NCBI GenBank assembly: GCA_963662465.1
Contig: OY759599.1
Coordinates: forward strand, 1,824,001 to 1,888,000
Reading direction: 5' to 3'
Length of the DNA stretch: 64,000 nt
Source of the DNA: Desulfatiglandales bacterium
Lineage (GTDB): Bacteria > Desulfobacterota > DSM-4660 > Desulfatiglandales > Desulfatiglandaceae
A program made the translations under genes and the position numbers. The notes beneath the pieces are model-generated. The model saw only the letters and a list, made by a program, of their open reading frames with translations. It did no database searches and was not told where the DNA came from. This document shows, in pieces, positions 22,697 through 35,775 of the stretch. How positions within the stretch are numbered: position 1 is the stretch's first letter; each line of letters begins with the position of its first letter.

Positions 22697-22779
22697 AAGT
22701 GAAAAGTGAAGAGTGAAAGGTGAAAAGTAAAGGGTAATGGTTGAAGAGGCGTTAACTCTTAACTCTTAACTCTTCACTG
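22697..22779. repeat. Heptamer tracts (GAAAAGT)n and (TTAACTC)n in roughly inverted arrangement
   Basis: gaaaagt gaagagt gaaaggt gaaaagt aaagggt ... ttaactc ttaactc ttaactc ttcactg. The second tract contains the helicase stop codon. Confidence 0.7.
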
Positions 22780-24814
22780 TCCGCACCGCCAGGGAACCCA
22801 GGGTCTCCTTAAGGGGTGATGTAAGACCGCGCTTTAAGGACATTCCTTTAAGCCTGTTCACAAACCCTTCCATGTCCATACAATCCAGCAAATGGGCCTG
22901 TCGCCATCCCGATGGAATCTGTGAAGCCCAGCCTCCTTCCCGGATTCGGTTTCGAAGTCTGACCCTGTGTCGAAGGACAATGGCGCGGATTTCAGCAACT
23001 GTGACATCCGTGGGCAACGCTTCGGGTTTTTCCGGCAGGTGCATGCAAAAGCCATTGATTTGCTGGGGTTTCATTCCGGTCCGACGGGTGATGAGCAACG
23101 CCAGAAGCACACCCCAAAGGCTTCCCATAAAGTGAAATAGCCCGAATGATCCGTCTTCAAGAATCACCATGGGGACATCCCCCGGCGCAACGCCCAGGAA
23201 TCGTGCGAAATCCCGGGCCAGACGGCTGCAAATGATGGGTCCCCTGGACAATGTTGTCTTCAAATGCGTATTGGTTGCCGCATCCTTAACCAGAATCCGG
23301 TTCCTTCCAGCCAGGCCCGACACCTTGAGATGTCGACCGCTGAGCAACAGACGGCCCTCCTCTGTTGCCGCCTGGGGAAGGGTTCCCAGCACTTGGCGGG
23401 TATCCTGGTCAACCACTTCAATGTCCCTGGCGCCATCTTCGATATTGGAATGGATGCGCCCTTTTTCAAAGGCTTCTTCCAGTTCATCCCCCATGAAGTA
23501 TCGCGGGCCGCTCCTAATGAGCCAATTTTTGTCAACCAGATGATCCAGGAGTTCGGGCAGCCGTTTCGCCCATGGGGATCCCTCGAGCCAATGGGGCATG
23601 CGGGAAATCATTGCCCTGGCGGTGATCCACCGTCCCGGTGTCTGCATGAGCAAGCTCATACATTGTTGCGCCAGTACCGATGGGCAAAAGCAATAGGGTC
23701 CACCCAGCAGACGACCATTTTGGGCACTTTCAATCAAATGCTCGTATCGCCGGGTTTCCCCGGGGTTGGCGGTTAAACAGCAGACGCGGGCGACCTGATT
23801 TCGTCGGTTTCCCCTGCCGATCCGCTGAAGCAGCGCGGATACATCCGGGGGTGGGGACGCCAGCATAATCAGATCGATGTCCCCGATATCGATGCCCACT
23901 TCCAGGGTGGTCGTGGAAAAGCATAAGCCGGATGTTCCGGTGAGCATTCTCCTTTCCACAAATTCTCGCCGAGCCAGGGCGAGGCTGCCATGATGTAGGA
24001 ATACGGCATCTCCGAAGGGCGGCCGTCCCTTAAACAGGGAAAACAGCATTTCCGCATGGGCGCGGCGCTGTACAAAGGCCAGGATCTTGCGGACTTCGGG
24101 GTTTTTGGACCTGATATCACGCAATTCGCGGGCCAGGGTCCCTGGGCTGTTGTGGATAAAATGTGCTTCAATGGGCCGATTCCCGGGAGACGTTACCATT
24201 TGGCAGTCCGATCCCACATAACGCAGCATGAGCCCCTCCGGGTCCTCAACGGTGGCGGATGAACCGATAACCTGGACTTGCTTTGCAATGCGATGTACCC
24301 GTGAGACCAGGCACGCCAGTTGATCCCCCCGAGGAGTCCCATCCAGTATATGCACCTCATCCAGCACCAAAAAACGCAGCGCCAGGAGCAGCGAAGGCGA
24401 ACGGGACAATATGGAATCAAGGGATTCCGGCGTTGTAACCACCAGGTGGGGAGGATTGGAACCCGATATTTCACGGTGTTCGCCGGTTCGGCGGCCCACC
24501 CGCAGCCCCATGGCCCCAAGGGGCGCCTTCAGGCGTCTGGCAAGGTCGTTGACCAGCGCGCGGGTTGGGGAGATAATCCATCCTGAAAGATGTCGCGGAC
24601 CGTCAAAGGACTGAATCATCTCGGCCATGGGGGCCGCGTAGGTTTCGGTTTTTCCGCTTGCCGTCGGCGAAATGAGCAACACGCCGCGACCCTTCATGAT
24701 CGCGGGGATACCGGCCATTTGAATGGGCGTGGGAGTGCCGAACCGTGCCAGGAAGGCATGCCACGACTTTGGCAGCAAGCCCTTTAATGCGCTGATGGCC
24801 GGCAAATCGTTCAT
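22766..24814 (-). CDS. Lhr-like DEAD/DEAH SF2 helicase (short; BrxHI/SngC-like)
   Basis: PTPIQ, SPTASGKT, TTPESL, LDEVH, SAT, HHGSL, TLEVGIDIG and LQRIGR. Confidence 0.88.
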   Translation of the reverse strand: MNDLPAISALKGLLPKSWHAFLARFGTPTPIQMAGIPAIMKGRGVLLISPTASGKTETYAAPMAEMIQSFDGPRHLSGWIISPTRALVNDLARRLKAPLGAMGLRVGRRTGEHREISGSNPPHLVVTTPESLDSILSRSPSLLLALRFLVLDEVHILDGTPRGDQLACLVSRVHRIAKQVQVIGSSATVEDPEGLMLRYVGSDCQMVTSPGNRPIEAHFIHNSPGTLARELRDIRSKNPEVRKILAFVQRRAHAEMLFSLFKGRPPFGDAVFLHHGSLALARREFVERRMLTGTSGLCFSTTTLEVGIDIGDIDLIMLASPPPDVSALLQRIGRGNRRNQVARVCCLTANPGETRRYEHLIESAQNGRLLGGPYCFCPSVLAQQCMSLLMQTPGRWITARAMISRMPHWLEGSPWAKRLPELLDHLVDKNWLIRSGPRYFMGDELEEAFEKGRIHSNIEDGARDIEVVDQDTRQVLGTLPQAATEEGRLLLSGRHLKVSGLAGRNRILVKDAATNTHLKTTLSRGPIICSRLARDFARFLGVAPGDVPMVILEDGSFGLFHFMGSLWGVLLALLITRRTGMKPQQINGFCMHLPEKPEALPTDVTVAEIRAIVLRHRVRLRNRIREGGWASQIPSGWRQAHLLDCMDMEGFVNRLKGMSLKRGLTSPLKETLGSLAVRTVKS

Positions 24815-26397
24815 GGGGCGCCCGACGTTAAATACACCAGCAGATCTTCCAGCATGGGTTTGAGCCGGTCGGGCCTATGTCTCGTAATATCAACTACCTC
24901 TGTAATAAACTTCAAGGCTTGCCTCGGGTTTTCGATGAGTCCGCTGCGATGGCAGGGTTCGATGACCTTTGCCATGAGGGCCGCCAGTTTTACGCCCAGG
25001 GCCAGCGGGGTCTGCGCCAGATCATAGAGCGACATGACCCTTTCGGAAAGGGTAATGTAATCCTTCGTGGTAAAAGGGGGCAACGCCATAAAGCGATTCC
25101 CTGGAATGGCTTTCTCCAGCACTGTTTTACCTTCCGGGTCATGGGTCAAAGCAAAGACCACATAAAGCGGTTGCTCGTCCTTGTACCGATATGGAAAACT
25201 TCTATGAATCGCATGCCCCCCCCTGGGTAGAATCTTGGGATCAAAACGAAGCACTGAGGGTGAAAGGCAGGCGGCTGAGAAGGTGCGAAACAACACATCG
25301 GCAAACCCCTGATCGCGACCGTCCAGTGCAGAGTAAAATTCCGCTTCATCCACCATCACGGCCAGACCCTTGTACCCTACCTGCCGGGCGATTTCCGCGA
25401 TTCCTCCCAGAATCAGGGTGTACAGATGGGTCACGGTGCGGAAGTCCTTGAGGGCGTACAGACGCACCCTTGCGCCGGTGACTTGCCGCAGTTCTTTTTC
25501 CAGTTCCACATTGCTGGCCACTTCGGACCCCTCGATCCAATCCAGGAGCCGTTCCAGCAAGTCGTCCGTTTGCCCCAGGGACGGCAGAACCGACCCGTAA
25601 AAGAGCGCGGGACCCAAATAGGGATGATAGTCAGAGCCTTTTCGATCGTTTAAACGGCGTATGAGGCAAACATCTTCATACGCTTTCATCAGAAGCGGTT
25701 TGAGCCCCCGAGGTTTCATGTCGGGATCATCGGGATAACGGATGCCCTTGGCCAGTTGATGGTAAATTCGCCGGGGCCTGGCCGGCGTCACTTCCTTGCT
25801 GTCCAGGGTGGCGCGGGTGGACAGGAATCCCTCTTCAAGGGCCATCAGCTCAGCCATTTCCAGAAAATGGGTCTTTCCCGCGCCGTAATCCCCCAGCACC
25901 ACCCTCACCCCCCCTGCCCCCGCCCCCGCGGCAACGAGGTCCTTATAGACTACCGCCAGTTCCACATCCCGACCCACCGTATAGGTGTTCAGGTGGCGGG
26001 TGGGAACCACGCCCAACCGGAGGGCCTCAAGGGCCTGCCGGGCCGTAATGGCGTCCTGTTTTGTTTTGAGGGTACTTTCTGCGGTATTGTTTTCTTTAAC
26101 ACCTGAAAAAACAGGAATAACCGGCTTTGAAGTCTTTCCCTCGGAAAATCCACGCACGGGGGTCGTCTCTTTTTCTGGGGAAACAACGCTATTTTCCACA
26201 CGGGAGGGCGATAACGGTGGGGCGTTCGATTCATGCAACAACAGCTCTTCCCGTGGAATATCCCAGGGCGTATGGGGCATTTCATCGAATTCCACCCGAA
26301 TTACCCGCCCTCCCCTGGACAGGCCGATCACTTTTCCAGCGCCCCAGTCCCGGTGTAAAATGGCATCTCCGATTCCGGGCATCCCCACCTTAGACAT
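24811..26397 (-). CDS. DUF2791/BrxD-like P-loop ATPase with N-terminal Tudor/SH3-like domain
   Basis: ALEALRLGVVP..YTVGR (BrxD-type N-motif), Walker A GDYGAGKT, Walker B VMVDEAE. Confidence 0.8.
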   Translation of the reverse strand: MSKVGMPGIGDAILHRDWGAGKVIGLSRGGRVIRVEFDEMPHTPWDIPREELLLHESNAPPLSPSRVENSVVSPEKETTPVRGFSEGKTSKPVIPVFSGVKENNTAESTLKTKQDAITARQALEALRLGVVPTRHLNTYTVGRDVELAVVYKDLVAAGAGAGGVRVVLGDYGAGKTHFLEMAELMALEEGFLSTRATLDSKEVTPARPRRIYHQLAKGIRYPDDPDMKPRGLKPLLMKAYEDVCLIRRLNDRKGSDYHPYLGPALFYGSVLPSLGQTDDLLERLLDWIEGSEVASNVELEKELRQVTGARVRLYALKDFRTVTHLYTLILGGIAEIARQVGYKGLAVMVDEAEFYSALDGRDQGFADVLFRTFSAACLSPSVLRFDPKILPRGGHAIHRSFPYRYKDEQPLYVVFALTHDPEGKTVLEKAIPGNRFMALPPFTTKDYITLSERVMSLYDLAQTPLALGVKLAALMAKVIEPCHRSGLIENPRQALKFITEVVDITRHRPDRLKPMLEDLLVYLTSGAP

Positions 26398-27667
26398 CCA
26401 GGAACTCCTCGTCGTCTACGGACCCAAGGCTTTCATATCCGCCCTGGATCAAGTGGTTGGCCTCATCGCGTGAAATTTCCACCTGGCCCCCGGATTTTTG
26501 CCCGTAGAGAAAATCCACATAGCTCTTCACAAACAGCCGCCGATGACTCACCTCAAAGGTGTAGTCCACCATGGTTTGCGCAATGAGCGCCCGGTTATGC
26601 GCCTGAATATCACGGTCGGATTTCCACCCCGTCGCCGTTTCAAAAATCAGTTCCAGCCGTTCTCCAATGCAAATCAGAAGTTCGGCCGCATCCAGATCCA
26701 GATGCTCAAGATCGATGACCGCGGCCTGGGGGCTGCGTTCTCCCAGGGGAACCGGACTTTTCAGTCGCTGGTCCAGGGCCGGATAGTCGGGAACCACGTT
26801 TCGTAAAAATTCCGGCGGCACCGCGTATAGAAAGAGGGTGGAGGGGAGCCGCGCTTGTCCGCAAAGATCCACCACCTGCCGCAGATTGTCTCCCACTGCC
26901 AGCATTTTTCGACTGGTCAGAGACAAATTCCGGTCCACCTCATCAAACAAAAGCGTAAGCCCCGGAAAACCGTAGCCGCTGATGATCTGGGACAGGCTTC
27001 GCAGCATTTTAAACCCCGTGGCGGTTTCAATGGCCTCATAGACCCCCATGGACCGTGTCTCGCTCTGGGGCACCGGTTCCCCCAGCAACCAGGGTTCCAG
27101 TGCGGCTTCCCGGGCATGGTCCCCCTGAAGGTAGGCGGCCATAAAACCCGCCGCGGCTTTTCTGAAAGAATGGCTTTCCGTGGAAACCCGTGCCGCGGTT
27201 CGCTGTATCCACATCAAGGCCCTTTCTTCTCCCATGGCTGTTACCTTGTCATCGGCCAGATCCCTCAGGATATCCGTCAGGCCGCGAGTGGGTTCCATGC
27301 CCTCTTCCAGGGGCGGGCTCGCCAGATTGACGGCGACCGCGCCATACACCTTCACGGGATCATCATAGGGACATTCTCTGGGGGAAAGATTGACCAGGGA
27401 GGTGAGAAAACCATGCTTCCAGGCGAGATCCCGAACACAATAGAGAAAATGGGTCTTCCCTCCGCCATAGTACCCCTGAACCAGTTTGAAGCTCGATCCA
27501 CGGGGGTTGTGTTTCAAACGGACCAGGTACTCCGTCTCCAGGATATGCAGATAGGAATCGTTTCCCACATTCAAATGGGTAATGCCCTGTTCAGGCGGTT
27601 GTCCGGATTCACCCACCCGTTGAATGATGTGGCCGGCCAGTTCCGGTTTAAGGGATGCCGTGTTCAT
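26390..27667 (-). CDS. DUF2791/BrxD-like P-loop ATPase
   Basis: SGQPP..LNVG, Walker A GYYGGGKT, Walker B LLFDEVD, DNLRQVVD and YPALDQRL. Confidence 0.8.
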   Translation of the reverse strand: MNTASLKPELAGHIIQRVGESGQPPEQGITHLNVGNDSYLHILETEYLVRLKHNPRGSSFKLVQGYYGGGKTHFLYCVRDLAWKHGFLTSLVNLSPRECPYDDPVKVYGAVAVNLASPPLEEGMEPTRGLTDILRDLADDKVTAMGEERALMWIQRTAARVSTESHSFRKAAAGFMAAYLQGDHAREAALEPWLLGEPVPQSETRSMGVYEAIETATGFKMLRSLSQIISGYGFPGLTLLFDEVDRNLSLTSRKMLAVGDNLRQVVDLCGQARLPSTLFLYAVPPEFLRNVVPDYPALDQRLKSPVPLGERSPQAAVIDLEHLDLDAAELLICIGERLELIFETATGWKSDRDIQAHNRALIAQTMVDYTFEVSHRRLFVKSYVDFLYGQKSGGQVEISRDEANHLIQGGYESLGSVDDEEFLDV

Positions 27668-28536
27668 GGATGCGCCTCCCTGGATATCGGCGAAAACCAG
27701 ATGCTCAGGTAATATTGTCCCTTTCCGCCCCCTTCCTCGATATAGAGTACATTCTTTTTATTTTTAGTGGCGGTCCCCGTAGCCGTGCCGAGGTTTAACC
27801 GGACGCCGTTTCGCTCCAACATGCCGTTTCTCCTGAGCCCGGCCAGATCGTAGGCCATACGGACACGGCCGTAGGCCCGATAATGGTCTGAAATCGGATC
27901 TGATCGGAATTTGGCGCTCTGAAAAGAAAGGGCAACAAAGGGGAGCAAATCAACCAGCGTAACCCGCTCACCCGGATGTTTTCGCTGTTCAAAAAGAAGC
28001 ATTTGATAGGCGTGGTGCAAGGCATCCAAAAAATCTTCGCCGGACCAGCCGGCATCCAGCAGTTTCAGATTCTTCTGAAGGGCTGCCATTATCTTTTCGG
28101 CTTTTGCCGGCACGTCCTCAACGGCGATTCGGGCATAACGAAGGGCGGCCAGGTTCTTTTCCAGGTTGACGGCGACCGTAAAGGGCGGAAGCGAAAATTC
28201 CATGGGGTCCGTCGTGATCAGTTGACATGAAACCCCTTCGCGGTCAGCGATTTCCTTCAGATCTCGGCCGAATTCAACCTTGCGTTTGCCGGCCCGTTTA
28301 CGCTGGTCTTCCACTGTTTGCGAAAGAAAATCTTCCAAATCAATGTGCAGCCCAAAGGCCCCCGGATCGAATGCTTCAAGCTGCCGGCAGGCTTCCCCCA
28401 CCTTGCCCGGCGATTCCAGAATCGCGTCGTCAGTGAGACTTTTAAGGGCCTTCTGCACTTTACCGAGAGCTTTTGACTGTTCATCCACCACCCCGAAAAA
28501 CCTTTTCGCCATATCTTCAATTGTTGTGTCGTTCAC
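27664..28536 (-). CDS. Hypothetical protein, helical N-terminus, coupled to the ATPase genes
   Basis: 290-aa ORF overlapping both neighbours by 4 nt; no motif recognised. Confidence 0.75.
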   Translation of the reverse strand: MNDTTIEDMAKRFFGVVDEQSKALGKVQKALKSLTDDAILESPGKVGEACRQLEAFDPGAFGLHIDLEDFLSQTVEDQRKRAGKRKVEFGRDLKEIADREGVSCQLITTDPMEFSLPPFTVAVNLEKNLAALRYARIAVEDVPAKAEKIMAALQKNLKLLDAGWSGEDFLDALHHAYQMLLFEQRKHPGERVTLVDLLPFVALSFQSAKFRSDPISDHYRAYGRVRMAYDLAGLRRNGMLERNGVRLNLGTATGTATKNKKNVLYIEEGGGKGQYYLSIWFSPISREAHP

Positions 28537-29702
28537 TTTTCTTTTTCTCCATATGCCTTAATGCCCTGATGTCGCAAGACGTCGCCCATCCCCGCCGGCG
28601 GCTGTTTTCCACTGCAACGGGGACATTTTTTCCGGTTCGCGAAAACAGCCAAACAGGAAGGACACAGCAAGTGAAGGGCATCATCACAAAAACCGAGGGA
28701 ATAGGTATCCATGCCGCAGGCCTCACAGGCCATGGGGTCAAATTCCCTGGAAAGAAGATTGTACACCACACTGATGCGTCTTTCCCCCTTTCGCCTTTTG
28801 ATCAAAAGGTCATGGCGCCGCACGGGAAGCCTGGCCAGAAGCAGGGTCAAGGGACGAATAGTAAGTCTTACCCGGTATTTGTCTTCCAGGGCCGCCAATT
28901 TAGCGGACTTCTCACCGGATAGCGCCTGAATCTTTTCCCTTCGAATCTCAAGATCCGCTCCCTTCAGGTTTCGTCTTTTGATTTCATCCGCCATTTCCCC
29001 TTTTAAATCTTCGAAATAGGTTTCAATCCGTTGTATGTCCCGAATATGATGTCGCAACACCTTGTCCTTGAAACCGGAAAGGCTTTCCCGGACCCGCCAA
29101 AGGGTCCTGTCGCAGGCGGTGATAAACAACGCATTCAACCGCTTTTGTGAAAATTCCATTGGTTTGACGGTGAGCGGTTCCCAATGGGACGCCTGCCCCA
29201 GAATAAGCTCCGGCAATAGGGGACAGTCCACCCCATCCGTGGAAACACAGGTATGGTGAACCGCTTCATGGCGTTCATCGGCATCCGCCGCAACCTCAAA
29301 AGACCACAGCCAGTAATCGAGTGTACTCTCATGGCTCCCTTTTTCCTTGAAGGCGCTGTTGGGAAAGCTGAAATAATCACCCGCATCTTTGTCGGATTTC
29401 TTTCGGGAAACAAGATAGGGCATCCGCAAAGCGGCGGTCTTCCCCATTTCAAGGGCCATGGGAATCGCCCGCTCCAGGAATTCGGTGCCATAACCGATGG
29501 GGACCATATCCGATGCGTCATCTTCGCCGTTTCCACCCGTGCGTGTATTGTCGGTAAGGCTCACCAGGGATTCAGAAAGCCCCAAACGACGCTGAACCTC
29601 CCCCGGCAGCAGGGCCTTGCATGTCTTTTCGCCCGCCTCCCATTCAACGACCCCATCGCTTTCTTCAATCAAATTGTTGGCAAATTGGAGTAAGTTACTC
29701 AT
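28533..29702 (-). CDS. YqhG-like protein with C-terminal Cys-rich putative Zn-finger
   Basis: Directly follows a YqhH-like SNF2 gene; coiled-coil RIETYFEDL; CEAC..CDDALHLLCPSC..CPRC. Confidence 0.62.
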   Translation of the reverse strand: MSNLLQFANNLIEESDGVVEWEAGEKTCKALLPGEVQRRLGLSESLVSLTDNTRTGGNGEDDASDMVPIGYGTEFLERAIPMALEMGKTAALRMPYLVSRKKSDKDAGDYFSFPNSAFKEKGSHESTLDYWLWSFEVAADADERHEAVHHTCVSTDGVDCPLLPELILGQASHWEPLTVKPMEFSQKRLNALFITACDRTLWRVRESLSGFKDKVLRHHIRDIQRIETYFEDLKGEMADEIKRRNLKGADLEIRREKIQALSGEKSAKLAALEDKYRVRLTIRPLTLLLARLPVRRHDLLIKRRKGERRISVVYNLLSREFDPMACEACGMDTYSLGFCDDALHLLCPSCLAVFANRKKCPRCSGKQPPAGMGDVLRHQGIKAYGEKEK

Positions 29703-29712
29703 TTTTCAATCA

Positions 29713-32127
29713 TTATATCTCATAATCATTTGCAAAAATTTCGCTGTCCAGTTTCTTAACCTTATCATATTGTTTTCGAGCGGCCAGCAGTTCGTCGCCA
29801 AGGGTTTCAAAGGCCTGGGCAATGTCCTGGTCGTTCCGGCTTCGGCCATAGATATCCAGGATGCGCTCTTCAAATTCCATCTCGCTCTTGGTTTGTCCCA
29901 GGACCAGATCCACTTCTCCGATCACCAGTTCAAACAGGTTGATGCGTTTGTCGAGTACATCAAGGATATGGTGTTCGGCCGTGTTGTCGGCGCACAGGTT
30001 ATATACGTGTACGGGCCGGGTTTGTCCGATGCGATGGATACGCCCGATGCGTTGCTCAATTTTCATGGGGTTCCAGGGCAGATCATAGTTGACCATGGTG
30101 GAACAGAACTGAAGGTTTCGGCCTTCTCCACCGATCTCGGAGCAGAGCATTACATTGCACCCGTTCTGGAAATTGAGGACGGCCTGGTCTTTTTCGGACG
30201 CGCTCATTTTTCCCTTGAACATGGAAAAGTCGACGCCTGCTTCCGAAAGTCGCTTCCCGATGTCTTCGAGGGTGGCCGTAAAACGTGAAAACACCAGCAC
30301 TTTTTCGCGGCTTACCTTCAATAGCGCCAACAGACGGGCAGTTTTGGCGGTATCGGGGACATAATCGCACAGCCTGGCCAGTTTACCCATCTCCTTTTTG
30401 AAATCGCTGTCCACCCGGGGATGCTCACACAGCTTTAGCAGGGTTTTTCGAACCGCCCCCGGGCTGGAACCGGCTTCCTGCAACAGCAGCCCCAGGGACA
30501 GGCGATTCATGTTGTTTTGAAAGCCTTTGCGCACCAGATCCGTCAGTCTGGCATACAATTCCCGTTCCGCCGGCGCGCCTTCCACCAGGACCGTGACAGC
30601 ATGGCGGGGCGGCAGTTTGATGTCGGCCAGGGCCCGGGTATTGCGAATCATGACCTCCCCGATGAGTCCCCGGAGTTCCTCACGGTTTCTGGGCTGGGTG
30701 GGATCACCGCGCAGCACAAATTGACGTCTGAATGCCGTTTTGGTCCCCAGTTGACCCGGCTTTAACAGGGTCACCAGACTGAACAGATCCATGAGGTTGT
30801 TTTCCACCGGGGTAGCGCTCAGCAACAGCAGAAAACGGCTTTTCAATTCGTTGATAAGCTTCCACCCCACTGTCCTGTCATTCTTCACGTGATGGGCCTC
30901 ATCCACGATAACCATGTCAAACCCGATATGGGTTAACAGGGGTCGGTGATGTTTGTTCCGAGCCAGGGCCAGGGAAGCCACGATCAAATCGTTACTTTTC
31001 CAGAAATGTTCCGGGTCTTGACGTAATTCAGGGGAATCCGTCGATACCGCTTTGATCTGGAATTTTGCCGCCAGTTCCTCGCACCACTGGCTGGTGAGGG
31101 CCGGCGGCGTCAGAATCAGTGCCTTTTTCACCATGCCCCGCATGAGGTATTCCTTGAGCACCATGCCGGCTTCGATGGTTTTTCCCAATCCCACTTCATC
31201 GGCCAGCAACACCCGGCCCCTGAAAGAGCGCATCACCTTTCGGACCGTATCCACCTGGTAGGCGTACTGCTCCACGCCCTTCAAGGTATTGACGCAGATG
31301 AGGTTGTCAAAGTGATCCGCCTGGGAAAATCGGCTCGCCTCCTGAGCCAAAAGGTACTTTTTGATATTGGCCACCTTGCCGGATAGAAAATGCGCATACA
31401 AATCATCCGGGCTCCGGATCAAGGCCGTCATATGGATTTTCGGCGGTTCGGGTTTCGGCGGCGCCTTCGGTTCAGGGTTTGGAAGCTTGGTACGGCCTGA
31501 AGAGGACTGTTTCAATTTGCGTCCGGTTACTTTTTTTTCTTTCGATACACGGGGGCTAACAGGCTTTCCCTTTACCGCGGTTTTTTTCGAGGTTTTGAAT
31601 GCTTTTCCGAATATGCTCCCTGACCCGCCGCTTTTTTTCGACTTTCGGTCAACACCGGACCCAGCCTGCTGGGAAGAAGTCTCTAACTGAGTCCGTAATG
31701 ACAGGACAATCCGCTTGATCATACCGGGATCTATACCCGTCTCTTCAAAAAATAACGTGCTGCACTGAGTGACCTTCTCAAGAAGTGGGAGAACCTTTTC
31801 AAATTCGCCGGTTTTAATAATCCTGAGGCCGTACATGAGGGATTCTTCGGGCGAAAGCGGCCTCAGCTGTTGGAGTTTCTGAAAGCACCAGATGACATTG
31901 TTATCGTCATAACCCTCCTCCATAAGAATCTGCGCCGTCAAACGATAGGCATCCGCGTAATCGGGATGTTTTCGTATTACAGTACGGATCAGATCCAGGG
32001 CAAAATCCGGTTTGCCTTTTCGCCACTTGGATTCAGCCAGGTTTATAGCGCCTTCGCAATAACTTTTTCCCAGCCACGACAATTCTTTAGAATCACTTAA
32101 GTTGGGTTTTCTTTTTTTTAAAACCAT
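29713..32127 (-). CDS. SNF2-family (YqhH/RapA-like) helicase with TPR-like N-terminus
   Basis: LADEVGLGKT, QWCEEL, VDEAHH, LSATP, GGEGRNLQ and YDLPWNPMKIEQRIGRIHRIGQ. Confidence 0.92.
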   Translation of the reverse strand: MVLKKRKPNLSDSKELSWLGKSYCEGAINLAESKWRKGKPDFALDLIRTVIRKHPDYADAYRLTAQILMEEGYDDNNVIWCFQKLQQLRPLSPEESLMYGLRIIKTGEFEKVLPLLEKVTQCSTLFFEETGIDPGMIKRIVLSLRTQLETSSQQAGSGVDRKSKKSGGSGSIFGKAFKTSKKTAVKGKPVSPRVSKEKKVTGRKLKQSSSGRTKLPNPEPKAPPKPEPPKIHMTALIRSPDDLYAHFLSGKVANIKKYLLAQEASRFSQADHFDNLICVNTLKGVEQYAYQVDTVRKVMRSFRGRVLLADEVGLGKTIEAGMVLKEYLMRGMVKKALILTPPALTSQWCEELAAKFQIKAVSTDSPELRQDPEHFWKSNDLIVASLALARNKHHRPLLTHIGFDMVIVDEAHHVKNDRTVGWKLINELKSRFLLLLSATPVENNLMDLFSLVTLLKPGQLGTKTAFRRQFVLRGDPTQPRNREELRGLIGEVMIRNTRALADIKLPPRHAVTVLVEGAPAERELYARLTDLVRKGFQNNMNRLSLGLLLQEAGSSPGAVRKTLLKLCEHPRVDSDFKKEMGKLARLCDYVPDTAKTARLLALLKVSREKVLVFSRFTATLEDIGKRLSEAGVDFSMFKGKMSASEKDQAVLNFQNGCNVMLCSEIGGEGRNLQFCSTMVNYDLPWNPMKIEQRIGRIHRIGQTRPVHVYNLCADNTAEHHILDVLDKRINLFELVIGEVDLVLGQTKSEMEFEERILDIYGRSRNDQDIAQAFETLGDELLAARKQYDKVKKLDSEIFANDYEI

Positions 32128-32347
32128 CCCGGTCTCAGTGCTTTCAGTTTATCTTAAGTCAAAATTTTAGGGTCAGGGTAAAAAAGCGCGGCCTGAATGA
32201 AAAATCTCCCCAACCATTCGATTTGCGAGTATAAAGCACATCAAATTGTGCGTCAACCAAAAACACAACACAACATGTGGTCTATAAAATCACTACACGT
32301 CCGAGCAAAACCAATGGATGCACAGATCGCTGTTCCGACTCAATAAA

Positions 32348-33897: not shown

Positions 33898-35118
33898 ATG
33901 AATGCAGGAGATACCGTTTTCGTACTGATATCCGCTGCCCTGGTAATGCTGATGACCCCGGGTCTGGCCCTTTTTTATGGTGGAATGGTTAGGAGCAAAA
34001 ATATTCTAGGGACACTCATGCAGAGTTTCGTCATTCTGGGGATCATTACCGTTGAGTGGGTACTTTGGGGCTACACCATGAGTTTTGGTCCGGATCACGG
34101 TGGCCTGATCGGAGGGTTAACCATGTTGGGGCTGAATGGCGTCGGGATGACGCCTAGTCCCGACTATGGTTCCACCATCCCTCAACTGGCCTTTATGATT
34201 TTTCAATGCATGTTTGCCATCATCACCCCGGCCCTCATCGCGGGTGCTGTTGCCGAACGCATGAAATTCAGTGCTTTTATCCTTTTTACGCTTTTGTGGT
34301 CTACATTTGTGTACAACCCCCTATGCCACTGGGTATGGGCTATGGGCGGATGGATGGGTAAGCTCGGCGCCCTTGATTTTGCGGGCGGCACGGTGGTGCA
34401 TATCAGCTCGGGGATTTCAGCCCTGGCCGCGGCCCTCCTTGTCGGCAGAAGACTGGGATATGGCGCCACGGCCTTCATCCCCCACAACCTTCCCATGACC
34501 CTCACAGGTGCTGCCCTTCTCTGGTTCGGGTGGTTCGGATTCAATGCCGGGAGCGCCCTGGCCGCCGACGGACTTGCCGCCAGCGCGTTCGTGGTCACCC
34601 ATATTGCCTCGGCCGTGGCGGCCCTATCGTGGATTATTTTTGAATGGATTCATCGAGGCAAACCCACCACTCTCGGCGTTGCTTCGGGAGCTGTTGCGGG
34701 ACTGGTGGCCATTACGCCCGCATCCGGCTTTGTGGGACCCATGAGTTCCATTGCCATCGGTTTCCTGGCGGGCGCTTTCTGCTACGGCGGCGTACTGCTG
34801 AAAACGAGACTGGGGTATGACGACTCCCTGGACGTGGTTGGGATTCACGGCGTAGGCGGCACCTGGGGAGCGCTTGCCACGGGACTGTTTGCCAGTACCG
34901 AGATCAATCCGGCCGGCGCAAACGGGCTATTCTTCGGGAATCCCGGCCAGTTGTGGATTCAGTTCGTCTCCGTTATCGCAACCATGGCCTTTGCCTTTGT
35001 CATGACATTGATAATTCTGAAAATAGTCGACAAGTTGGTGGGCCTTAGAATCACCGAAGATGAAGAACGAATGGGTATGGATACCAGCATCCATAATGAA
35101 GCGGGATACACCTATTAA
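33898..35118 (+). CDS. amtB: Ammonium transporter
   Basis: LMTPGLALFYGG, DFAGGTVVH, WFGWFGFNAGS and DDSLDVVGIHG. Confidence 0.96.
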   Translation: MNAGDTVFVLISAALVMLMTPGLALFYGGMVRSKNILGTLMQSFVILGIITVEWVLWGYTMSFGPDHGGLIGGLTMLGLNGVGMTPSPDYGSTIPQLAFMIFQCMFAIITPALIAGAVAERMKFSAFILFTLLWSTFVYNPLCHWVWAMGGWMGKLGALDFAGGTVVHISSGISALAAALLVGRRLGYGATAFIPHNLPMTLTGAALLWFGWFGFNAGSALAADGLAASAFVVTHIASAVAALSWIIFEWIHRGKPTTLGVASGAVAGLVAITPASGFVGPMSSIAIGFLAGAFCYGGVLLKTRLGYDDSLDVVGIHGVGGTWGALATGLFASTEINPAGANGLFFGNPGQLWIQFVSVIATMAFAFVMTLIILKIVDKLVGLRITEDEERMGMDTSIHNEAGYTY

Positions 35119-35123
35119 ATTAG

Positions 35124-35614
<491 letters not shown>

Positions 35615-35775
35615 AATTGTAAACCGCAAACCAATTATAAGTTACAAAACCATTATAAGTTACAGGGTACCGGGAAAGATGTTGTGATTTTGCTGAAATA
35701 AGCCCCTTGACACAAGCCTTTTGGAAATGTAACACATGGGCCTTGATCAAACCAAGTCTCGACGGGGAGGGTTAA

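Follow-up and report, generated by a model that had tools for sequence, protein, structure and literature searches.

What is the purpose of an operon that places a SNF2-type motor and a partner protein in front of two BrxD-type ATPases and an Lhr-type helicase? The question is raised by a 64,000-nucleotide (nt) stretch of contig OY759599.1 from a Desulfatiglandales bacterium (GCA_963662465.1, positions 1,824,001 to 1,888,000; hereafter, the window), in which six open reading frames (ORFs) on the minus strand occupy 22766..32127 in the order SNF2-Y389-U290-D1-D2-Lhr (hereafter, the cassette). An earlier note, made from the letters of this DNA, described six co-oriented genes separated by one 10-nt gap and overlaps of 4–8 nt, as the ORF coordinates bear out: in gene order, a 10-nt gap is followed by overlaps of 4, 4, 8, and 4 nt. 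We propose, at a probability of roughly 0.45, that the cassette encodes a mobile six-gene machine that is induced by shortage of deoxynucleoside triphosphates (dNTPs) under the control of NrdR and clears stalled transcription and replication.

A joined six-gene operon and its line of descent

The joined form, complete in 14 loci including the window, is a single clade whose six proteins co-diverge. The full gene order was found in 13 loci in addition to the window, with a further locus (L046) following it up to the end of its contig, and it stays fixed down to 49–58% identity. Whether homologs co-occur was a point on which the earlier note let its proposal depend, and they do occur as a unit: after seven duplicate or near-duplicate loci (L033, L035, L042, L047, L070, L072, and L081) were left out of the counts, Y389, and with it the SNF2-Y389 pair, preceded U290 in 23 of the 26 near-clade loci whose upstream sequence extends over 600 nt or more (one being the damaged L037), and D1 lay downstream of U290 in 23 of 24. 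The carriers are bacteria of the sulfate-reducer type; the named records belong to Desulfatiglandales, Desulfobacterales, and one Myxococcales genome.

Quick maximum-likelihood trees place the joined Y389 proteins together on one side of a branch (22 rows; Shimodaira–Hasegawa-like approximate likelihood ratio test, SH-aLRT, 100), and the D1 proteins of joined loci form a branch (support 99) with the same subgroups. Locus L045, which has no SNF2-Y389 pair, is nested inside the joined branch and is therefore read as a loss; the deeper order of the tree is unsure because long branches meet among the outgroups. Across the 14 complete cassettes the distance matrices of the six proteins correlate (Mantel rho 0.70–0.96), with SNF2 and Lhr at 0.96. 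Purifying selection acts on each of the six genes (dN/dS 0.05–0.27 in four of four locus pairs), by this measure most strongly on D1 (0.05–0.15), and the G+C content of the operon block, 54.5% versus 49.5% for the genome, lies in the top 2.6% of equal windows.

PADLOC and NCBIfam comparisons returned no matching system, in line with the statement of the earlier note that it knew of no named system with this layout, and all NCBIfam equivalog scores of the operon proteins fall under their cut-offs. A 2012 paper on Ter systems by Anantharaman et al. reportedly covers neighborhoods of TerB, ATPase, and Lhr genes, and it may include a twin-ATPase form; related neighborhoods possibly stand in the supplements of PMC12839542 as well. 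Within the scope of our literature searches, no description of the joined six-gene form was found.

A promoter with NrdR-type boxes

The cassette promoter is located inside the inserted segment. It consists of a sigma-70-type promoter (TTGACG, 17 nt, TATACT; 32228..32256, minus strand) matching the consensus at 10 of 12 positions, and of two NrdR-type boxes: the upstream box 1 at 32268..32283 (15.9 bits with an nrdJ-trained matrix), and box 2 at 32236..32251 (6.4 bits), which is 32 bp away from box 1 and, within the promoter spacer, touches the -35 hexamer. These tandem boxes (32228-32283 with the promoter) had been overlooked in the earlier note, as had a Tudor-like domain in D2. The conserved block upstream of SNF2 was tested independently with a motif derived de novo from nrdJ upstream regions of 29 other genomes, which proved to be a 16-bp palindrome of consensus ACACAATATATTGTGT, with a second site 30–32 bp upstream in 15 of the 29. 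NrdR sites are defined by tandem boxes 31–32 bp apart (PMC2892513, in extract), and the host genome carries an nrdR gene (TIGR00244, above cut-off).

When the 8.16-Mb genome was scanned for box pairs 30–33 bp apart, the cassette promoter was the first-ranked tandem site at 22.3 bits, with host nrdJ ranked sixth; the maximum in eight block-shuffled genomes was 19.1 bits, and none of the eight reached 20. Boxes scoring 10 bits or more occur in 8 of 18 six-gene loci versus 1.0% of 5840 host upstream windows, and were found in none of 16 solo SNF2-Y389 pairs and none of 14 four-gene or lone-U290 loci. Ten cassette promoters match nrdJ promoters (four shown) base for base in layout, and in the window, as at host nrdJ, the sigma-70 promoter is overlain by a pair of 16-bp palindromes at a distance of 32 bp. 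The cassette differs from the NrdR regulon in its target, which is a mobile DNA-motor operon and not nucleotide metabolism. The second- and third-ranked tandem sites lie at G000:C1:5766884 and 2369562 of the host genome; the former precedes a gene of 514 residues that looks like one for an acetyl-CoA synthase complex subunit.

No more terminators and promoters are counted over the region than in shuffles, so our promoter claim rests on conservation. We consider it very probable from this sequence evidence that the cassette is under NrdR control through predicted binding at the two boxes. Because NrdR responds to ATP/dATP (PMC12748703, in extract) and mediates induction by hydroxyurea (PMC2892513, in extract), de-repression of the operon by dNTP shortage is the most likely mode of induction.

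Two modules and their known relatives

The claim that two modules of known type are joined in one operon held up, as did the eight Walker-type motifs quoted for it, every one of which is present in its stated protein. The first module is the SNF2-Y389 pair. SNF2 (29713..32127; 804 residues; Pfam SNF2-rel_dom, Helicase_C, and a weak TPR_16) consists of N-terminal TPR-like helices and a RapA-type motor core that ends where the C-terminal domains of RapA begin. RapA is its best solved relative (E 1e-43), and among profile matches it is closest to DrmD and RapA. By extrapolation of the alignment SNF2 ends near RapA residue 704, which makes the split with Y389 collinear.

Neither Y389 (28533..29702; 389 residues) nor U290 could be assigned to a Pfam, NCBIfam, or PADLOC family. 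A Foldseek search with the AlphaFold model of Y389 (predicted local distance difference test, pLDDT, 88.5) gave four matches at E ≤ 0.001, all of them E. coli RapA, and realignment of residues 1–295 to RapA 712–968 superposed 188–238 residues (Z 8.4–9.1; root-mean-square deviation, rmsd, 7.2–12.4) over several domains in order. The link to RapA rests on structure: a PDB sequence search with Y389 returned matches at the zinc-finger level only, and a broad Y389 profile found no match in the C-termini of other SNF2 proteins of the genome. In a wide VIA search with Y389, the matches listed were coiled-coil matches only. The RapA/BrxHII tail is described as an inactive nuclease-like domain plus a five-stranded sheet with a coiled-coil insert, and the secondary structure of Y389 agrees with this description (PMC12839542, in extract). 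With the caution due to the high rmsd and modest Z of the match, we read Y389 as a detached RapA C-terminal region plus a zinc-binding tail (Cys/His residues, 326–363), and SNF2-Y389 as a putative two-piece RapA.

The pair resembles E. coli RapA, with which the RapA-like BrxHII and DrmD are grouped as its closest relatives, in having a SNF2 core and C-terminal alpha/beta domains, here spread over two proteins. RapA, in contrast, is one polypeptide with N-terminal tandem Tudor domains where the cassette SNF2 has its TPR-like N-terminus, and the zinc-binding tail of Y389 is a further difference; the NCBIfam RapA score is 237.6 bits against a cut-off of 576, and the RapA_C profile PF12137 has no match in the genome. 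DISARM is likewise distinct, with DrmD scores of 262.5 bits versus 950 and 240.6 versus 610 and no other Drm genes in the locus. The label "YqhG-like" given to Y389 in the earlier note survives in remote form: 3 of 39 aligned homologs match PF11079 (best E 3e-4), and Y389 itself does not. The Bacillus pair, whose genes we take to be yqhH-yqhG, similarly has a short SNF2 gene followed by a coupled partner, and distant Y389 homologs weakly match PF11079; Y389 differs in falling under any PF11079 threshold, in being longer, and in its fixed place before a four-gene core. The nearest named Atlas cluster of Y389 is YqhG, at 0.82, which is a lead only.

Relatives of Y389 are present in 24 of 401 phylum genomes and lie behind a SNF2 gene or fragment in all 20 distant loci that were fetched. 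P0129, from L037, was rejected as evidence for a SNF2-Y389 fusion, given its large internal deletions. Elsewhere (L057:2421-10129), a DUF3670 SNF2, a SWIM protein, a second SNF2, and a Y389 relative stand in one run.

The second module comprises U290, D1, D2, and Lhr. U290 (27664..28536; 290 residues) belongs to an unnamed family of 654 representatives at E ≤ 0.001, and its structure model (pLDDT 96.1) shows a helical hairpin, a small alpha/beta domain, and a C-terminal domain. Residues 165–287 of the last align with winged helices of ORC1, Cdt1-type, and kleisin chains at Z of only 5.6–6.2, and a Foldseek search with U290 gave no match at E ≤ 0.001; because of these modest scores, we grade a C-terminal winged helix as likely in the model and claim no family link.

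Both ATPases, D1 (26390..27667; 425 residues; E 3e-35) and D2 (24811..26397; 528 residues; E 1e-25), are of the BrxD/DUF2791 type and exceed the Pfam cut-off of PF10923 BrxC_BrxD. BrxD, which has no DNA-binding domain, has been placed among the ORC/Cdc6-type ATPases and suggested as a loader of BrxHI (PMC12839542, in extract). Walker A and B motifs are intact in both proteins. At the arginine-finger position, assigned by inference from AAA+ topology, D1 has a conserved arginine aligned with that of BREX BrxD, and D2 has no conserved residue among 22 aligned orthologs. D2 instead carries a small N-terminal beta domain (26224..26379), present in 22 of 22 aligned orthologs, which is Tudor-like, of the PcrA/UvrD C-terminal type: 12 of its 13 PDB profile matches are UvrD/PcrA or Mfd chains (best E 7e-4), its best other match within the genome is the UvrD C-terminus, and PcrA_UvrD_tudor matches 11 of 18 D2 members, with the window copy under the cut-off.

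Lhr (22766..24814; 682 residues) is an SF2 helicase of the Lhr/BrxHI/SngC type (PADLOC BrxHI E 5e-65, SngC E 6e-46). Its residues 467–476 form a hairpin resembling the helicase-interaction motif of PMC8318588 (in extract), which is close to canonical in L011 and L082 and deviates in the six-gene clade; the host RpoB has the canonical motif. The D2 Tudor domain may therefore, judging from these sequences, serve as a dock either for the helicase of the operon itself or for RNA polymerase.

By the tests above and below, the cassette is not a member of Shango, BREX type 2, DISARM, or RapA. As in the BrxD-BrxHI dyad of BREX type 2, a PF10923 ATPase stands directly 5' of an Lhr/Ski2-type helicase whose top PADLOC match is BrxHI. 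The differences are the second ATPase (one of the two with a Tudor domain), the additional U290 and SNF2-Y389, NCBIfam BrxD scores of 94.9 and 64.8 bits versus a cut-off of 350, though PF10923 was passed, and the absence of PglW, PglX, PglY/BrxC, and PglZ from the cassette locus and its flanks; in a positive control (L088), PglX and PglZ were detected beside a BrxD-BrxHI pair. With Shango the cassette shares a stand-alone order of adaptor, ATPase, and helicase without methylase or nuclease, the ATPase being of the DUF2791 type (SngB E 2e-17 and 2e-15) and followed by a DEAD/DEAH helicase. U290, however, is not TerB/SngA (none of 137 family members matches a TerB family in Pfam at E ≤ 0.05), and Shango differs further from a cassette with two ATPases, SNF2-Y389 in front, and an NrdR-type promoter.

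Each module is also found alone, which could mean that a split RapA and a four-gene loader-helicase are independent and share a promoter and inheritance, not a substrate. Of the 17 distant loci whose sequence reaches 1.8 kb or more downstream of the pair, all 17 have a solo pair, with neither U290 nor an ATPase behind it; the four-gene core stands without the first module in L011, L012, L082, and a second clade; the SNF2-Y389 pair is missing in L030, L045, and L027 and damaged in L037; and in G005 other genes stand behind a second copy of Y389. The duplicated ATPase to which the earlier note drew attention is thus present and yet not special to this locus, being part of the wider core. The persistence of the join in fixed order to the identities given above, the matching trees, the correlation of SNF2 with Lhr, and an NrdR-type promoter seen only in the joined form all speak against independence. 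Since linkage alone would also yield correlated distances and matching trees, the trees are not decisive; we consider independent modules improbable.

Several relatives of these genes are worth recording. In L030 (L030:1452-2999), a close relative without SNF2, Y389, and the boxed promoter, U290-D1 immediately follows the CDP-alcohol phosphatidyltransferase gene that precedes the cassette in the window. In G005, toxin-antitoxin-like genes stand behind a second near-clade copy of SNF2-Y389 (L146), and a U290 fragment (L027) stands behind an integrase gene; together they are possibly a cassette split by insertion, or a mixed assembly (8% contamination). The second clade, which has a double helicase of 1950 residues, has one copy in the host genome (G000:C1:3722292-3732371; L009, L029), behind an rRNA methyltransferase-like gene. 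This distant core comprises U280, homologous to U290 at 95% probability, two ATPases that flank a GNAT-TacA toxin-antitoxin pair, and a 1971-residue fusion of Lhr with an SF1 helicase; it occupies the same site in G008 and G009, and the core is also found in G087, G184, G213, G242, and G384. Lone U290-family genes without ATPase or helicase (L013-L018; e.g., L014:9807-10634) hold a fixed, housekeeping-like position behind HUMPS-family and SIS-domain genes in six phylum genomes. In two separate clusters (P0214, P0226), a U290-family domain is fused behind what we take from its sequence to be a phosphoglucosamine mutase.

Possible roles: fork clearing or defense

Lhr reportedly unwinds RNA:DNA hybrids, and RapA reportedly recycles RNA polymerase. 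The simplest model, by analogy, is that the cassette would work like a BrxD-BrxHI loader plus RapA. Under replication stress, dNTP shortage would lead NrdR to de-repress the operon. The winged helix of U290 would bind DNA, replacing the DNA-binding domain that BrxD-type ATPases lack, and D1 and D2 would assemble into an ORC/Cdc6-like AAA+ hetero-oligomer with the arginine finger supplied by D1. The D2 Tudor domain would dock the Lhr-type helicase (or RNA polymerase), and U290-D1-D2 would act as a split loader that places the helicase to unwind DNA or RNA:DNA hybrids, as SNF2-Y389, a two-piece RapA, would push RNA polymerase off the same stretch. In this way, R-loops and stalled transcription complexes would be cleared when forks slow. 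That all six proteins form one machine, in which an ORC-like split loader, an Lhr-type helicase, and a two-piece RapA are switched by NrdR upon dNTP shortage, whether for conflicts or for immunity, is a more tentative proposal than any on function made here except that of independent modules.

The cassette has been gained or lost at its site. Its flanking genes abut, leaving the site empty, in six genus genomes (G003-G007 and G009) and enclose or adjoin a cassette in three (G000, G010, and G001); G008 lacks the downstream flanking gene, and G002 gave no match. Cassettes stand at other positions in G005 and G007. U290 was not found in 30 genomes from other genera of the order. The unit is patchy and mobile, and its neighbors are mostly housekeeping genes in a scan covering 110 of the 117 flanking ORFs of 20 loci.

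Such mobility also suits defense against phages or plasmids by a system of the Shango or BrxD-BrxHI kind that works without methylase or nuclease and uses NrdR as its infection sensor. Phage DNA synthesis would drain dATP, the operon would be de-repressed, and the loaded helicase and RapA-like motor would dismantle phage replication or transcription complexes. The nearest profile matches of the cassette are defense proteins (BrxHI, SngC, BrxD, SngB, and DrmD), and Shango, composed of a TerB protein, an ATPase, and a helicase, gives 10–100-fold protection (10.1101/2022.11.11.516204, in extract). Nine of the 20 loci (L026, L027, L028, L031, L034, L045, L073, L075, and L079) have a toxin-antitoxin, insertion sequence, Uma2, or integrase gene no more than 5 kb away. 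Solo SNF2-Y389 pairs, however, have similarly scattered toxin-antitoxin and AAA_14 neighbors (62 selected of 124 flanking ORFs, an unmatched comparison). No complete known defense system was found within 5 kb of any of the 20 loci, the PADLOC matches in the flanks being single candidates (PDC-S01, S03, and S70) or cross-matches of housekeeping genes, and no relative was found in viral contigs, or in plasmids at E ≤ 1e-30. The anti-phage reading of the earlier note has thus found no defense-island context so far; its other option, repair or clearing of transcription, is favored by the NrdR-type promoter, the RapA-like fold, and the Tudor domain, with the function itself predicted. The mostly housekeeping surroundings, which include an endonuclease III gene 32–33 nt ahead of the cassette in L043 and L080, also count for clearing. 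We judge NrdR-gated defense a serious contender, somewhat less probable than host fork clearing.

Fork clearing, our preferred reading, has a good deal to contend with. Ten of the 18 six-gene loci are without a box of at least 10 bits: two still have a degenerate pair in register, and eight have other upstream DNA, two of the eight sitting directly behind endonuclease III. The box-positive loci share descent and are not independent. The genome contains 52 single sites of at least 15 bits versus 5–14 in shuffles, an excess that suggests a wider regulon or a second binder; the best single box of the cassette ranks only 43rd, tandem sites ranked second to fifth do not belong to nrd genes, and the core box was not seen upstream of two nrdD genes. 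The RapA match of Y389 (rmsd 7–12 Å, Z about 9) is no better than coiled-coil-only matches, and the defense helicase BrxHII also has RapA-type architecture (PMC12839542, in extract). The D2 Tudor domain has retained the His and Trp of PcrA and not the Lys and Leu that PcrA needs for binding RNA polymerase (PMC5397179, in extract). Finally, the patchy, mobile distribution is like that of defense systems, with Y389 in 5 of 11 genus genomes (several incomplete) and about 13 differing flanking contexts among cassette loci.

Two further features of the surroundings were noted. The helicase loader gene dciA lies just 3' of the cassette in the related loci L039:10283-10609 and L077:17002-17508, which may be a chance of the insertion site. 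In the window, a reverse-strand ORF (35115-35750) behind a P-II gene crosses a direct repeat (24-residue), and the segment 35133-35750 is probably a duplicated non-coding element, not a gene.

The cassette offers a handle on the mechanism of the BrxD-BrxHI dyad, of Shango, and of YqhG-type proteins, since it supplies a testable inducing condition in NrdR and dNTP shortage and two candidate parts, one a subunit through which BrxD-type ATPases might bind DNA and the other a domain on which the helicase might dock. If true, NrdR control of a mobile multi-motor operon would widen a regulon described mainly for ribonucleotide reductases, be its role repair or defense. If the six proteins do form a single machine, it would constitute a dNTP-gated pathway for transcription-replication conflicts, or a form of immunity with the host's nucleotide-pool repressor as its infection sensor, and a testable biochemical role would follow for BrxD-BrxHI, Shango, and YqhG proteins.

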